DNA of 64,000 nt from Minisyncoccia bacterium (GTDB taxonomy: Bacteria; Patescibacteriota; Minisyncoccia; Phycocordibacterales; UBA6065): positions 32,481 through 96,480 of the forward strand of contig JBIIJY010000003.1 in the NCBI GenBank assembly GCA_044233485.1, in the 5' to 3' direction. Positions 34,901 through 40,900 of this stretch are shown piece by piece. The position numbers are program-made. Numbering within the stretch: the first letter of the stretch is position 1; every line of letters starts with the position of its first letter.

Positions 34901-37900
34901 TTATACCCTCTCTCAATTGAAAAACTCTGCACAAGGCAGAGTTTTTCAATAGGAGTTCGGAGTAAAACCCTAGCAAAAGCTAGGTGGGTCCCCTCACTGT
35001 TACCGCCAAGGCGGAGCAGAATGTGAAGGATCAAGCCTTCGTTGGAGTCCCAAAATTTTAGGTATAGAGTTTTTACTCCGAAACCCCTCCTTTTATTGTA
35101 CTCTTTTTATACAGATTGCAAGTAACCTAGAGCCCTATCTTGTAATCAGTGAGGGCGAACGCAACAAAACCGATGAGCGCTAAAGTGATCATCAGATTAA
35201 AGATAAAAACTAGATATTTAGAGAGGTTTTTTTCTTTTGTTCGCAGAAAAATATAGACGATCAGCGGTAAAAACACTAATAGAAACAGCGGACTTATCCA
35301 GAAGATTAGAAATAAAGGATGCTCTCCGGCATACAGACCGAAAATTACTGAGAATAGTACTAGCGCCAATTGCAAAATCAATATCTTGTTGCCCATCTAA
35401 TTTAAGTTAGTTAATAACTGCTGTATATATCGTATCAATAAATCTCGTTCACTGTCACCCAGATGGCGCTTACTCAACCTTGATCTTTTTATCTCGCGCG
35501 CGAACCCTTGAATTTCTTTTCTAATATTCTTTGTTTTCTTATTCTTTTGAAGTTTCTTTTGTATCTCACCAATCTCTTTGAGCAGTTCTTTTTTGACCCG
35601 AGGTGGCACCTCAAGAGCCAGTACATACCCTCGAATGAGCTCTAGATACTGGAGAGGTGTTAAGGTTTTACTTGTATCAATTTGGGTGTCTACCCGCCCA
35701 TCACTATCTACATCAAGCTCCAAACGAGTTGATGTGCCCGTATAGAGTACTCGACCCGAGAGAGCGGTTGATACCGGTAAGTCCTCAACAGTCTGCATTG
35801 AAGACTCCACTCCATCTGCAGACACGTGCGAGATGATTGTTGTGAAAGTGCCACTGCCCGTACCTTTCAAGCGAGCTTGCACATTACTACCCGCGACGAA
35901 CCCGGCATACTTCGCCTCACCAAACTCAAAATAGTACGAGTTCGGGATTTCTGTGGTAGTGGCATTTGTTATGCGCCCCTGTGCATCGACAAGCTCAAGT
36001 GAGACCGGTGAATGAATTGAGATTTGCGAGAAAGACAGACCCGGATAGGTGCTTGAGGCCTGACTGATGTGGGCTATAGTTTCTGTACTTGACCCCACAA
36101 TAATACTCTCAAGTAATGTCTGTACTGGCTTAGTACTCAAAATACTGGCATGTGCTCGATTTTTATTTTGAGTATTGTGCCCATACAAATCAAAGTAGAA
36201 TGCCTCAGTGGTTGATTTCATTTCTGTCGCACTTACTACCGGCACAGTCCCGTCACCAGCCAAGGTTAATGTCGGTCGTGTATCTAGTGTACCGTCGTTG
36301 TCGATATAGCTAAACCGTGCCAGTGTCGGAACACCGGTCCCGGCAACCACGAAGGTACGTATATGTTCTGGTAACTGATAGTTATCAAACGTACTATGGA
36401 ACGCCTCTGCGTCAGAGTAGTACTGACTATCAAGCTTCACGGGCATAAGGAGCGAATTATACGAAGGCCGATTTGGGTCGAGACTGGCAAGTAAGAAGGA
36501 CTTTTGATCTTGAAAATTTAGCACTCCTCGGCCATAGGGCGAGAGGTTAATCCCTGAAAACGTCCGACCTCCCTGCTCAAAGGAGATAGTGCTTGTTGAG
36601 ATGTGCTCATAGTATTTTTCGGTTGGTAGAAGATAATATGGAGCTGGTATGTCGCGGCCAAGCTTTTTGGCACTTGCCTTATTTTGAAAAATACCAAAGA
36701 ATATTGATTGCTCGTACCCAAACATTAGGGCTGCTATTGTTTGCGGCGCACCAAGATGTGGTGTGGCGACAAACACCACCTTATCAATTGAACGCAGTAG
36801 ATCCTTGTCTTCCTCATCCGTAGAGTCCTCTAAAGTCTTAATAAACTCTTTTACTACCAGACCTCCATTACTATGAACCAGTATCGTCACTTTACCATTT
36901 TGAGCAGCCTCCTTAAGTCGTCTAAACTGAACCCTGAGACTTTCGCTTGTATTGCCCATTGGATCATCTGCCAGGTACTCACCCCGCACTATCTGTCGAG
37001 GTGAATAGCGCCAATCATAGACAAATATTCCAGCATTTCTATTCGTACGTGACGCAAATTCCTGTAACCACTCCTCAAATTGTCCGTAGACTTCAAAAGC
37101 TGATATCGGCTTTACCAAATCTCTCGCATATATTCCAGAAGTTACCGGGTTGCGAGTTGTTGAACTGAAGTGCAACTCCCTTCCATCAGCATTTGCGTTT
37201 GGCTCCCATAGTCGATCTTCACCGCCACGAGACTCTTGTCGATAAAGTCGACTCCCTTGAAAACCTGGTATGAACAAAACACCTGAGCAACATGCCGTCT
37301 CACTTTCTTGCACAGGAACTTCAGTAAGCCACGGACGGAACGAGACGAGATCAGTTACTTCATTACCCAGCCCCTCAGGATTACTCGCATGGTACGGCCC
37401 AGTCGCATCTCCCCAGAACACATTTGTCGCGATCACTTCATTTTCTGTGTTATTAAGAATCCCGACATTGTTATTGCGAACTGATGAATTCTCTATACGC
37501 AATATATCCGAAGATACACTTTGTGCCTGAACTTCAAATAGCGAACGCAACTGCTCCCAAAATCCTAGAATCACCGGCCCCGTATAGGCGCGTTCAATAC
37601 CATTTCCATTAGCTCGAATGTCAGAAAACTCTATTTGAACATTCCCCTCGAGGGTCCAGATACCGGTCCTGAAACCTTCTATTGTTGTTGAGGCCAGCGT
37701 TGTTGTACTGTGATCGCTCCATACCCCCTGACCTCTACCCATACCGAGCAAGGTGACATTATCGAGCCTCAGGCCAGAACTTCGAGCGTATACGGCCGCA
37801 ACATTACGAGGTTGAGTAAACAAAACACGGGCGTCAACGAGCTCAACATCCTTCGCCCGTATAAGCGACAAAGGATTGGCATCTATCCCGACTAACCCCT

Positions 37901-40900
37901 CTATGCGTATTTTCTTTTTCGTATCCGATAGATATACACCAGAATAGCTGTCACGAACATGTATATCTGTGAGCACGGCACTTTCCCGAGTATTAAGTAG
38001 TCCCACTCCACCAAAATCTTCGATTAATACATGCTCAATCTTTGGCACTGTCCTATTCACCCAAACTCCACCTTCACTTCTACGCAGATGCGTGTAAATA
38101 AGCTCTATCTCACCCGCCCCAGTAGTCTCTATGTTCCAAAATGGGTAGTTTGTTTCGGTACCTGATTCAAGATCTTGAATTGAAGTGAGTTGCACGAGCT
38201 CAGTCGGTGTTCCGCGAGCTACGAATCTACCCGACACTTCCAGGTAGCCATCATCAGAAAAATACACCGTCACCCCAGGATCAACACTGAGTATCACCCC
38301 GGCAGGAATTTCTACAAAACCACTTACCAGGTACGGACCTTGCTCTTTGGTAAGTACCTTGTCCGTCACCAGTACCGGATCAAGCTCGGTAAGGGCATAT
38401 ATATTGTTCGGGAGTAGCAGAGCGCAGAAGAGACTGAAGATCAGAGTTACAGAATACACAACGTATTCATGTGATTTCACTCAATTTTATTTTATTGATA
38501 TACCGAAACTGTACCTCGTTTTTCTTTCTCTGTAATAGAGCTCTGTGGATAACTCGACTGTAGTGGGACTTTCCAGCAAACAAAAAACCCCTTGCGGGGT
38601 TTTTTGTTTACAAAGCGTATTAGGCTTTGAACTCGAGATCAGAATTACGGATTCTGAACTGAAGTTCTCCAGTCTGTCTTACCAGACATGAAGTTTGATG
38701 TTGAGATTGTCGCTCCGTCGTCTGCTGACCATCGGATAGCGTCAATACCAATTGCTGTACCAGCGATTGGGTTTCCAGCAGCATCCTTACCTGGGAGTTC
38801 GAACACAAGATCACTAATAGTCATTGTGTTGTTTTCCTGGAGTCGGAAACTGTTAGAACCTACACCTGTTGTAACTACACCTGATGAAGGAATCGCAAAA
38901 CCTGATGACGAAGCGGTGAAGAATGTAACTTCTGAACCAGCGTTGTTATAGGTCTTGAATGCGAATGCTCGACTAGCTGAAGTTGAAGCCTGTGAACCGA
39001 ATGTAAGGTCTCCACCCTTAGCTGTAATCTGAACAGAGAACGAAGCCTTGATCGTAGATGTACTTAGAGTTGAACCACTGTTGTTAGATCCTGAAGTTGA
39101 AATTGTTCGACTGTTGAGGACGATAACTGGACCAGTGTTTCGAACATACATGTTTTCACCTGTAGCTGAACCTGTCTTTGTAGCAACTGAGTCACCACGT
39201 GAGTTTTCAGCTGTAACATCAGCAGCAACGAGTGTTCCCTTGAATACTGTTGCTGAAGTTCCTGCGTTTCGAACGTCTACTGCGACTGTATAAGTCTTTG
39301 TAGAGTCCTTTGCAACTACTACACTGTCGATGTTTGTGAAGTTAGCTTCGTATGAGTTTACAGCGTCAAATACTGGTGTAATTGACTCGATAACTGTTGA
39401 ACCATCCATGAGGTAGACGTTACTGAATGTTGCTGAACCTGAAGTTGTTGCGATCTTGATTGTAAGATCTGTAACATCAACTGAATCTTTCTCAGCTCGG
39501 AGGTCGAATGAGAAGAGAGTGACTTTGTCAGCCTCGTTCTCAAGTGAACCTGAAGTTGCAACCACGTCTGTAGACTTGATTGTACTTGAGTTTGTAGAAA
39601 GTGTAAGTCGAGATGAGTCAACCTGATCAGCATCCACATTCATACTTCTTGAAAGAGCTGAGTTTGGAGCGAATTGATCGATCGCAGCACCATCTACACC
39701 TCGAATTCCGTCAGTTCCAATTGTGATTGTGTAGTCTGATGAGAGATCAGTTGAGTCAATTGAAGAGAATACATCGGCTGCGATGTAAAGATTCTTCTTT
39801 GTGTTCTTTCCGATTACATAACTAAAGTTTGAGATAGTTACGTAATAGTTTGAACCATCCTTAACAACTGTTGATGAGTTGAGGTCAACTTCAGCGACTG
39901 TGTTCATTGAATCATCAAGAACATACAATCGATCGTAGATCTTGTTATAGATCTTTGTTGAGTTTCCAAGATCGAGCTTTACTCGCTGAACATTGATGTC
40001 TGAGTTTTTAGCCTCAAGTCGTGCTGCATAGACAACAACTTTCTTGTCTCCTTCGTAGATTGTTGTAGGAACATTCTGTGAAGTAAGAGCCATAGAAAGA
40101 GTTCCTTCTACACCTGTGTTACCCGCAACTGGAGTGTATCCAGATGGAGTAGATGGAGTAGAAACAACTGATGTTCCGTTAGCTTTAGCTCGAGTGATTG
40201 GACCAAAGAATCCAGCTGCTGGTGTAATACCATTTGCCTGCTGGAAAGCGATGACCGCAGCTCGAGTAAGAGGACCAAAATATGCAGTTGGAGCTGAGAT
40301 TTTGAGGAACCCCTTTGAAATAAGGAAGGACTGGAGAGCTGAAACTTCAGCACCTCGTGATCCTACGGTAAGGTTTGTGTTGAATGTCATTGTCTGAGCT
40401 GAAGCAGAAACTGCTACAACAAAGGCAAATGATGCCAACGCGATTGCTAATTTTTTCATATATGAATCAATTAATTAAGTACTTTCTCTTCTTAACAAGT
40501 AAGTCTTATAAGTTTGCGAAGATACTCATACGGTTTTGAAGTCCGGATTATTTCGTGTCGAACGAAAGTGTTCCGTCTTCTACGAACTCTTTTGACGGAG
40601 TCCGTTCTACTAATTTCGATTGTGTTTCTATACGAGATAGAATTCGACACACGCACGAAAGTTAGCATACATATCTAACTGTCTTTTCAGAATTTCTGTC
40701 GATGTCTGAATAAGGAATATCGGGAGTGTGCCACAACGTTTTATACTGCCTAATTGAGTTGTAAACGTTCTGGTTTGTATGAAGTAGTGATACGACATAC
40801 GAGCAAGGATAAGCACCCTTGCTTGCGTACAGTATATCGAACCTACATACAAAAATCACGTCGGTGTGGATAGTAAAGCGTAAATATCGATAAAATCGTT

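Follow-up and report, generated by a model that had tools for sequence, protein, structure and literature searches.

A candidate surface-layer gene and a predicted LCAT-like exoenzyme gene at a conserved Paceibacteria cell-surface locus

The bacterial candidate phyla radiation (CPR, or Patescibacteria) accounts for a large part of bacterial diversity and, taken as a whole, lacks lipid biosynthesis. CPR bacteria, which lack lipid synthesis, are enriched in lysolipids that a phospholipase A could generate (PMC7242380), a secreted phospholipase has been proposed to serve lipid acquisition in Vampirococcus (PMC8080830), and the mechanism by which CPR cells acquire lipids has not been identified (PMC11665869). 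In three cultured Paceibacteria, proteins with a peptidoglycan (PG)-binding domain are among the five most expressed secreted genes, one of them a 692-amino-acid protein with a signal peptide (PMC10936435). A preprint classes this same protein, together with a 643-amino-acid protein from Vogelbacteria and a 727-amino-acid protein from Nealsonbacteria, as short surface-layer (S-layer) proteins with three immunoglobulin-like (Ig) domains, and predicts a p6 hexagonal lattice of 13.5 nm, in agreement with the 13-nm lattice seen by cryo-electron microscopy on CPR cells (10.1101/2024.05.28.596244). Here we analyse two adjacent genes, A and B, in a 64-kb stretch of a Minisyncoccia genome (hereafter the window; contig JBIIJY010000003.1, positions 32,481 to 96,480), which encode a predicted exported lipid hydrolase and a candidate S-layer protein, respectively.

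We lean, modestly, towards the reading that the two genes belong to a conserved cell-surface locus with two separately transcribed envelope genes, in which B would encode the likely S-layer protein and A a lipid-releasing hydrolase of the LPLA2/LCAT type. The window is part of a 681-kb metagenome contig of the Joint Genome Institute (JGI; 3300042914, Ga0453085_0000001) assigned to Paceibacteria (Parcubacteria, CPR). The genomes in which relatives of the two proteins occur bear the names Paceibacterota, Parcubacteria, Taylorbacteria, Zambryskibacteria, Nomurabacteria, Vogelbacteria, Kaiserbacteria and Moranbacteria, and on the strength of these names we place the source genome in the Paceibacteria group of the CPR. 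On the minus strand of the window, a gene for a winged helix-turn-helix (wHTH) protein (41094–41909), gene B (38645–40459), gene A (35397–38480) and an open reading frame (ORF) of 89 amino acids (aa; 35127–35396) follow one another. An earlier sequence-only reading of the window had placed ORFs of 1027 aa (A) and 604 aa (B) at these positions, where we also found them.

Gene B, a candidate S-layer gene

Gene B (38645–40459, minus strand) encodes a predicted wall-anchored surface protein of 604 aa. Its N-terminus, MKKLAIALASFAFVVAVSASA/QT (ending AVSASA/QT; the slash marks the presumed cleavage site), has the canonical form of a Sec signal by inspection (aa 1–21, 40397–40459), in agreement with the earlier suggestion that B is secreted. 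A PG_binding_1 domain (PF01471; aa 35–90, 40190–40357) scored 41.7 bits against a Pfam cutoff of 23 and was modelled by AlphaFold2 as three helices (aa 37–48, 63–75 and 87–95) with a predicted local distance difference test score (pLDDT) above 90. A disordered linker (aa 96–115) leads from this domain into three beta-sandwich domains, D1 (aa 116–280, 39620–40114), D2 (aa 281–441, 39137–39619) and D3 (aa 442–604, 38648–39136), which were modelled confidently from a 62-sequence alignment (mean pLDDT 87.8 over aa 116–604). The sequence-only reading had seen here a very long, S/T/N-rich repetitive region, a description that has to be replaced by that of three folded domains. The segment is rich in S, T, A and V (13% S, 12% T) but neither low-complexity nor repeated: Tandem Repeats Finder returned for B just one 9-nt unit in 2.3 copies, and no similarity was detectable between the sequences of domains 1 and 2 (E = 1.2). 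No Pfam model matched any of the three sandwiches. The broader characterization of B as a PG-binding, S-layer- or adhesin-like surface protein is consistent with its PG_binding_1 domain and three sandwiches.

Homologues of B, at least 495 of them, align over their full length at 42–52% identity. These homologues measure 604–680 aa and the family as a whole spans 604–715 aa, B being the shortest member seen, and B lacks the short helical segment that most relatives have between the signal peptide and the PG-binding domain. Each of the three sandwiches keeps 39–50% identity to the query across the aligned homologues, with conservation falling from 0.50 in D1 to 0.39 in the distal D3. Mature B is acidic, with a pI of about 4.8–4.9, and contains no cysteine; 41 of 62 family members likewise lack cysteine.

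The composition of B is distinctive. Among 49 ORFs in the window it has the lowest G+C content at third codon positions (GC3, 0.319; z = −2.5), which confirms half of an earlier visual impression that its coding strand is both more A/T-rich and more repetitive than its neighbours; the other half failed for want of tandem repeats. The effective number of codons (Nc) of B is 35.3, second of 42 genes and behind ribosomal protein L20 alone. Favoured codons are AAC (85%, against 34% elsewhere), TTC, ATC, AAG and CAG, with one preferred codon per four-fold family, and low Nc is common to B, L20, EF-P, SSB, S6 and RecA. We therefore put the AT-richness of B down to translational codon bias in a gene whose expression is probably very high, and not to foreign origin. 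We also compared 80 species-level genomes, whose loci are labelled L010–L089. The median Nc of the B family across these genomes was 38.9, compared with 47.4 for RecA, 48.4 for FtsK and 50.1 for the LCAT family to which A belongs, and the B-family value was the lower one in 63 of 68, 67 of 69 and 25 of 25 loci, respectively.

Reading and folding of the sequence downstream of B located an intrinsic terminator, AAAAAACCCC-GCAA-GGGGTTTTTT, at 38582–38605 (minus strand). A consensus terminator scanner missed it because its T-run pairs with the A-tract. In 76 of 77 loci an equivalent series of A-tract, GC-hairpin and T-tract comes after the B-family gene. With a canonical terminator thus placed in the window and in these relatives, we conclude that A and B are not one operon. 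At the other end of the gene, the transcription start inferred from the promoter gives the mRNA a 5′ leader of about 365 nt (40460–40824, minus strand); the median in B-family relatives is about 260 nt. The leader has a fold energy of −89.4 kcal/mol (z = −3.45 against 100 shuffles) and begins with a 9-bp hairpin (40802–40823). We considered a structured RNA in this long spacer and set the idea aside, as there was no Rfam match at E ≤ 1 and the 5′ hairpin was only weakly enriched in the leaders of relatives (33%, against 17% of shuffles) and not general. In 72 loci and in the window (40460–40480), no B-family gene carries GGAGG, GAGG, AGGA or GGAG 4–20 nt upstream of the start codon, although these are the most codon-biased genes of their loci; a few show GGGTG there. 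It may be that initiation of translation does not depend on a classical Shine–Dalgarno sequence in this lineage.

Upstream of B we report a promoter element that is new here. The 9-mer TTATCCACA, which we take to be the canonical DnaA box (consensus TTATNCACA), was counted 127 times in the 1.34 Mb that the B-family loci span, where about 10 copies would be expected, and 70 of the 127 lie on the B strand, 74–580 nt upstream of the B ORF. Of the 74 loci whose upstream sequence was long enough, 69 had the exact box and another 4 had a box with one mismatch but identical geometry (73 of 74). In 63 of 70 loci a −10 hexamer starts 38–42 nt after the start of the box, with a T-rich TTTTGC at the −35 position, so that the box sits at about −52 to −44; apart from the box, the −10 hexamer and the T-rich stretch there was no other conservation, flanks included. 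In the window, the B promoter has a box with one mismatch to the exact sequence (CTATCCACA, 40865–40873, minus strand; about −49 to −41 of the inferred start), the T-rich stretch TTTTTG at the −35 position and an inferred −10 hexamer TATACT (40831–40836, minus strand) that begins 37 nt from the start of the box. Elsewhere, boxes that have the geometry of a promoter lie mostly before genes for membrane or secreted proteins, three of them before LCAT genes. Candidate binders of the box would be DnaA or the protein of the adjacent wHTH gene.

The sole locus without a box among the 74 is L076, a non-syntenic paralogue. It forms a pair with L077 on the same 433-kb Nomurabacteria contig, one genome thus carrying two B-family proteins (686 and 673 aa). 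Of the two, only L077, which has the RecA–FtsK–wHTH context, has the promoter box and a downstream LCAT-family gene, and this gene is apparently split into ORFs of 388 and 539 aa.

A strong promoter with the DnaA-box-like element, a long leader, pronounced codon bias and a strong terminator would together fit very high expression of B. From these signals and the domain structure, B is most likely the major surface-coat (S-layer) protein of the cell. It would be exported by Sec and anchored non-covalently through PG_binding_1 to the cell's own peptidoglycan, and the flexible S/T/P linker and three beta-sandwich domains would project outward and may form a lattice. Related Paceibacteria have methanogenic archaea as their known hosts. 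These are not known to carry murein that a PG-binding domain could bind, so the domain in B would have to bind the cell's own wall.

Gene A and its family of predicted lipid hydrolases

Gene A (35397–38480, minus strand, GTG start) encodes a 1027-aa protein that we assign, from Pfam matches, an AlphaFold2 model and Foldseek searches, to the LPLA2/LCAT family of serine hydrolases. Its N-terminus, MKSHEYVVYSVTLIFSLFCALLLPNNIYA/LT, has by inspection a charged n-region, a hydrophobic core and an IYA/L cleavage motif (signal peptide, aa 1–29). The homologues we aligned all have a hydrophobic N-terminus ending A-x-A/T, and an N-terminal hydrophobic segment was found in 123 of 142 family representatives. 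The signal peptide is followed by a right-handed beta-helix (aa 30–392, 37305–38393), matched by Beta_helix over aa 231–354 (PF13229; 30.1 bits against a cutoff of 25.9) and modelled as stacked short strands over aa 30–390, with moderate confidence (pLDDT 57–85 over aa 100–300). Then come an alpha/beta hydrolase domain (aa 396–800, 36081–37295), matched by LCAT over aa 462–728 (PF02450; 54.3 bits against 21), a beta-sandwich without a Pfam match (aa 816–935, 35676–36035) and a helical, FIMAH-like bundle (aa 942–1027, 35400–35657; FIMAH just under threshold at 23.3 against 24.8 bits). The complete model had a mean pLDDT of 85.4 and a predicted template modelling score of 0.70. An export signal, a beta-helix and a lipase-type hydrolase with HSNGG and PHLGAP motifs had all been proposed for A by the sequence-only reading, and each was recovered here. 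Its wider guess at a PGAP1-, LCAT- or DUF676-like enzyme held for LCAT; DUF676 fell just under threshold (20.1 against 20.3), as did DUF900, and PGAP1 had no Pfam match on A, matching 15 of 45 family members.

The predicted catalytic triad consists of Ser537 (36870–36872) in the conserved nucleophile elbow HSNGG that begins at aa 536, Asp743 (36252–36254) in GDGTV and His777 (36150–36152), all encoded on the minus strand; the protein also has YDWR (aa 488–491) and PHLGAP (aa 574). Alignments of 20 and of 45 family members showed H-S537-x-G-G, YDWR, G-D743, H777 and an HSP motif where the C-terminal domain begins to be invariant, so that the conservation of the triad, on which the proposed hydrolase function had been made to depend, is borne out. 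Among the top representatives the serine elbow was kept in 148 of 148 and YDWR in 146 of 148. Foldseek ranked LPLA2 first (4x97; E 2.4e-12, target-normalised template modelling (TM) score 0.68), followed by Tle4, LCAT (TM score 0.55–0.64) and BlEst2. A profile search of PDB sequences aligned PYDWR, the serine elbow and GD-x-TV of the A family with PYDWR, HSMG and DGDGTV of LPLA2, and also found Tle4. The profile was needed for this, a single-sequence search with A returning spurious beta-trefoil matches only.

A word-indexed search gave 6 relatives and suggested that A might be a rare orphan. This view was abandoned, since an exhaustive HMMER scan with aa 385–1027 gave 3,185 cluster representatives (50%-identity clusters), of which 1,396 reached E ≤ 1e-30. 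In the best 150 matches the whole 643-aa module is covered, and it follows a variable N-terminal extension of up to about 740 aa (median about 300). A Pfam census of 45 members found LCAT in 45, Beta_helix in 23, NosD in 8 and FIMAH in 4. Its domains make A typical of a large and undescribed subfamily, rich in CPR members, of predicted LPLA2/LCAT-like exoenzymes with a distinctive architecture of beta-helix, hydrolase, beta-sandwich and helical tail. In the literature searched, no paper connected PF02450/LCAT to CPR bacteria.

The neighbours of A-family genes offer a clue to function. A YceI domain (PF04264) is fused to the C-terminus of a 1,384-aa family member (L011:14186–18340), and in two further loci a membrane-anchored YceI protein is encoded 2–13 nt after the A-family gene (L010:17811–18515 and L012:17867–18538; YceI 66–70 bits). 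YceI resembles lipocalins and binds isoprenoids and fatty acyl compounds, and these fusions and neighbours therefore point to a lipid product and a lipid-handling role of the A family.

A small ORF with several transmembrane segments directly follows 13 of 32 A-family genes, and five of these ORFs, from different genomes, form one homologous family with four transmembrane helices (4-TM) and a Cys…Cys loop. Members of this family, such as L002:11103–11543 and those after the LCAT-family genes of L015, L057, L061 and L080, have 115–147 aa and no Pfam annotation, carry their loop, Cys-x(6-12)-Cys, behind the first helix, and are found with or without a nearby B gene; they could be immunity, anchor or partner proteins. 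In the window the corresponding position is taken by the 89-aa ORF (35127–35396, minus strand), a small membrane protein with three hydrophobic helices that count as three transmembrane segments by Kyte–Doolittle. We tried the ORF as a member of the 4-TM family and rejected it, there being no detectable similarity. Its ATG abuts the TAG stop codon of A (AAT TAG ATG GGC), and we conclude that A and the small ORF are probably co-transcribed and translationally coupled.

The function that we favour for A, by inference, is the harvesting of lipids from foreign membranes. Exported by Sec, A would use Ser537, Asp743 and His777 to attack an acyl ester of a glycerophospholipid, giving an acyl-enzyme whose acyl chain would then pass to water (phospholipase A) or to an acceptor (transacylation). 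The beta-helix, which varies within the family, may target a foreign cell surface or glycan. The conserved C-terminal beta-sandwich and helical tail may serve as a binding site for long acyl chains, as a regulatory element or as a surface anchor of the enzyme, perhaps by way of the 89-aa membrane protein. Fatty acids or lysolipids would thereby be freed from host or environmental membranes for a cell that is probably unable to make lipids, and the host membrane might be weakened in the process.

Conservation of the locus and competing explanations

We determined synteny around 79 B-family genes of the comparison set. In 73 of the 79 loci the gene immediately upstream of the B-family gene, in the same orientation, is a wHTH homologue, and a divergent block of FtsK, a 117-aa protein and RecA stands beside it in 68–69, so that the conserved order is RecA–FtsK followed divergently by wHTH–B. 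The wHTH gene in the window (41094–41909, minus strand) encodes 271 aa from a TTG start, compared with 262 aa in the JGI call (start 41882). The regulator gene that the sequence-only reading had noticed beside B is supported by a marginal Pfam pass for HTH_DeoR (21.8 bits against a cutoff of 21), and among 78 homologues conservation is confined to the C-terminal winged helix of about 60 aa (aa ~205–270). The 117-aa protein (44399–44752, plus strand, in the window) has a hydrophobic N-terminus and a Glucodextran_B-like Ig fold, and is kept between ftsK and recA in 69 of the 79 loci.

In 27 of the 48 species loci with at least 6 kb of downstream sequence, an A-family gene follows the B-family gene on the same strand, 288–2,800 nt away. 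Of these matches, 22 have E < 1e-50, and none lies upstream or on the opposite strand. The pairing of A and B is thus not accidental, and the recurrence in related genomes that had been suggested as a check on the pair is found within 3 kb downstream of the B family. The genes that intervene between the two encode surface proteins with LTD or PKD domains. In part, then, the locus can be described as a conserved gene for the putative coat protein, behind which exported surface proteins are encoded in varying sets, the LCAT-like enzyme being the commonest tenant. In the window, A too has a box: the only exact copy of TTATCCACA in the 64 kb lies 64 nt upstream of the GTG start of A (38544–38552, minus strand), with a weak −10-like TACAGT downstream of it (38508–38513). 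By our own calculation, chance would provide about 0.5 exact copies per 64 kb, and the probability of one in this orientation within the 164-nt spacer between A and B is about 6e-4. With boxes before both genes, A and B may share a regulator in this genome.

Other explanations of B have been weighed against the S-layer reading. B could be a host adhesin or attachment fibre rather than a lattice-former and, together with A, could make up a host-attachment or attack module. Its fold search returns the Gram-positive adhesins and pilins SpaP, UafA, ClfA and EbpB, conservation drops towards D3, and proteins with a PG-binding domain have been read as host-attachment factors (PMC10936435). However, all three sandwiches are retained at the identities given above, and B combines synteny with the housekeeping genes recA and ftsK, codon bias beyond that of recA, an acidic pI and the lack of cysteine, traits that are typical of a structural coat. 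Moreover, archaeal hosts would offer its PG-binding domain no murein, leaving the cell's own wall as the ligand, and a lattice has been predicted for the same architecture. We regard an adhesin as unlikely. The attachment or predation module that had been suggested for the pair is possible for A; for B, a coat on the cell's own surface is the better reading. Horizontal acquisition of the region as an island would account for a GC3 of B that lies 2.5 standard deviations below the window mean, but is very improbable: the bias runs as translational selection would have it (two-fold codons ending in C, one preferred codon per four-fold family), L20, EF-P, SSB, S6 and RecA likewise have low Nc, A is of average composition (z = 0.1), the locus is syntenic in about 70 species and no mobile-element genes adjoin it in the window. 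A foreign origin of B, with the codon bias of ribosomal and other highly expressed genes and this breadth of synteny, is effectively refuted.

For A, the harvesting of lipids has to be weighed against two other activities. A could be an offensive membrane toxin, like the Tle-type phospholipase effectors, that lyses or permeabilises host or competitor cells, with the small membrane protein encoded downstream as its immunity protein. The small multi-transmembrane ORFs after 13 of 32 family genes, five of them homologous, would suit such a role, as would the start of the 89-aa ORF at the stop codon of A, and phospholipases have been proposed in the literature to breach host envelopes in Patescibacteria. 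Yet no genes for a type VI secretion system (T6SS) or other effector delivery adjoin A, which carries a plain Sec signal, and where B is immediately followed by an A-family gene, rplJ comes next and there is no small membrane ORF. The 89-aa ORF is also not homologous to the recurrent 4-TM family, and Tle immunity proteins are periplasmic or lipoproteins and are not known to be polytopic. A toxin seems improbable to us, and it should be said that toxicity and scavenging are not mutually exclusive and can coexist. Alternatively, A may act on its own envelope or glycans, as an acyl- or acetyl-esterase or a transacylase that remodels wall polysaccharide, S-layer glycan or the cell's own lipids, with the beta-helix binding polysaccharide. 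Right-handed beta-helix domains of the CASH/NosD-like kind typically bind or cleave polysaccharides, and the Foldseek matches include alginate lyases, the RbmB lyase and a phage tailspike; A stands beside B in a surface-protein locus, and the window also holds a large cluster of glycosyltransferase, Wzy and carbamoyltransferase genes. This account, which we rate as distinctly improbable, is countered by the catalytic domain itself, which has the LCAT/LPLA2-specific YDWR motif and fold (TM score 0.68 to LPLA2) and no carbohydrate-esterase fold. In addition, the YceI fusions and neighbours indicate hydrophobic ligands, and the beta-helix is dispensable, being absent from 22 of 45 family members.

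Several observations weigh against our proposal of an S-layer gene linked to a lipid-releasing enzyme. The best PDB sequence match of the A-family profile is Tle4 (4r1d; E 1.8e-4, Foldseek E 1.3e-9), which fits a toxin equally well. Three of the five A homologues found first lie away from any B gene; with A homologues elsewhere and a terminator between A and B, the linkage may reflect inherited synteny and not functional coupling. The box is carried by only 5 of 39 A-family genes, and a general TTATCCACA regulon of the two families was rejected on this count, although A in the window has one. Almost no codon bias is seen in A (Nc 56.7, rank 41 of 42), which suggests that the enzyme is not abundant. 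On the side of B, the Foldseek search against the PDB gave generic tandem Ig-like arrays only (integrin legs, Gram-positive adhesins and pilins). B probably belongs to the short three-Ig-domain S-layer class, an assignment by architecture, size and lineage. The proposed roles of both families are read from sequence and structural models, and missing fatty-acid synthesis in this organism is assumed from its lineage, 64 kb of its genome having been seen.

Neither gene overturns existing ideas, A and B both being of recognisable kinds. B adds independent genomic support, in the form of codon bias, a monocistronic unit and synteny, to the preprint's purely structural S-layer prediction, and the TTATCCACA promoter element is a first handle on transcriptional control in organisms whose regulation is hardly known. 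A large exported family with an intact LPLA2/LCAT core, sometimes fused to YceI, is a concrete candidate for lipid acquisition in the CPR. If the proposal is right, the A family would strip acyl chains from host membranes and supply lysolipids and fatty acids for the own membranes of lipid-auxotrophic cells. A bolder version, possible but doubtful in our estimate, is that A-family exoenzymes are the missing lipid-acquisition machinery of Paceibacteria, encoded at the S-layer locus, with interchangeable N-terminal targeting domains and, in some lineages, hand-over to fused or adjacent YceI carriers, and that the DnaA-box element drives the S-layer gene, and here A too, tying the envelope to the replication cycle or to the wHTH protein.

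Beyond B, the wHTH gene, FtsK and RecA, the neighbours of A in the window include DUF2238, an RNase J-like gene and ribosomal protein genes. Elsewhere in the window, on the minus strand, a class I aminoacyl-tRNA synthetase of 1151 aa (55256–58711; tRNA-synt_1, 443 bits; Anticodon_1) contains a histidine-phosphatase domain (His_Phos_1, 114 bits; aa 506–670) that splits the two halves of its catalytic domain, an unusual insertion. A TraG/VirD4-like coupling ATPase of 606 aa (29978–31798; DUF87, TrwB_AAD_bind and T4SS-DNA_transf) with a long P/Q/K-rich C-terminal tail adjoins a four-gene GT4 glycosyltransferase cluster, and is probably part of a patescibacterial type IV secretion or competence machinery. 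The same strand encodes a 638-aa DUF11-repeat protein with little other annotation (52788–54704) and a 547-aa ORF without a Pfam match (58877–60520).

Comparison with known systems

The closest relatives of the catalytic part of A are LPLA2 (PLA2G15) and LCAT (PF02450). They share with A the alpha/beta-hydrolase fold with LCAT-type additions, the HS-x-G, (D)GD-x-TV and H motifs of the triad, PYDWR and a G-[AT]-P block after the nucleophile strand. Sequence identity is about 15%, and A is bacterial and exported by Sec, whereas the eukaryotic enzymes lack both its 360-aa beta-helix and its conserved 230-aa beta-sandwich and helical tail. The Ser and Asp motifs of LPLA2 were aligned explicitly with those of the A family, whereas His777 was placed by conservation within the family.

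Tle4 (PA1510), a PGAP1-like T6SS effector of Pseudomonas aeruginosa, resembles the A family in its fold and in the (V/L)FIPG strand and HS-x-GG elbow that underlie the sequence match given above, and can be likened to A as a secreted bacterial enzyme acting on the membrane of another cell. A differs in having no T6SS or VgrG neighbours, in its export by Sec and in its accessory domains. Its neighbour is a small polytopic membrane protein, whereas Tli4 is a periplasmic immunity protein. BlEst2 of Bacillus licheniformis is, like A, a secreted lipase, here of a monoderm, with a C-terminal beta-sandwich beside the catalytic domain (Foldseek, about 640 columns over hydrolase and beta-sandwich, E 3e-7). 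The C-terminal domain is an inhibitory propeptide in BlEst2 and is required for C12–C16 substrates in EstA3 of Thermoanaerobacter. The global TM score is low (0.38), and BlEst2 and EstA3 have neither the beta-helix nor the helical tail.

B has its nearest counterparts in the three S-layer proteins of the preprint, from Yanofskybacteria (GMX57981.1, 692 aa), Nealsonbacteria DGGOD1a (UMX47672.1, 727 aa) and Vogelbacteria (A0A1G2QP48, 643 aa). These likewise consist of a signal peptide, an N-terminal PG-binding domain and three Ig-like domains, and B and these proteins fall within 600–730 aa and the Paceibacteria lineage, the B family including a Vogelbacteria member (L084). B is shorter at 604 aa and has no short helical segment before its PG-binding domain, and high expression was measured for the Yanofskybacteria protein, whereas for B it is inferred from codon bias. 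In its arrangement, the locus recalls the slpA/cwp cluster of Clostridioides difficile, in which a highly expressed monocistronic coat gene is followed by variable genes for exported proteins, here LCAT-like, LTD and PKD proteins. The anchoring differs: proteins of slpA/cwp-type loci are held by CWB2 or SLH domains, and B would be held by PG_binding_1.

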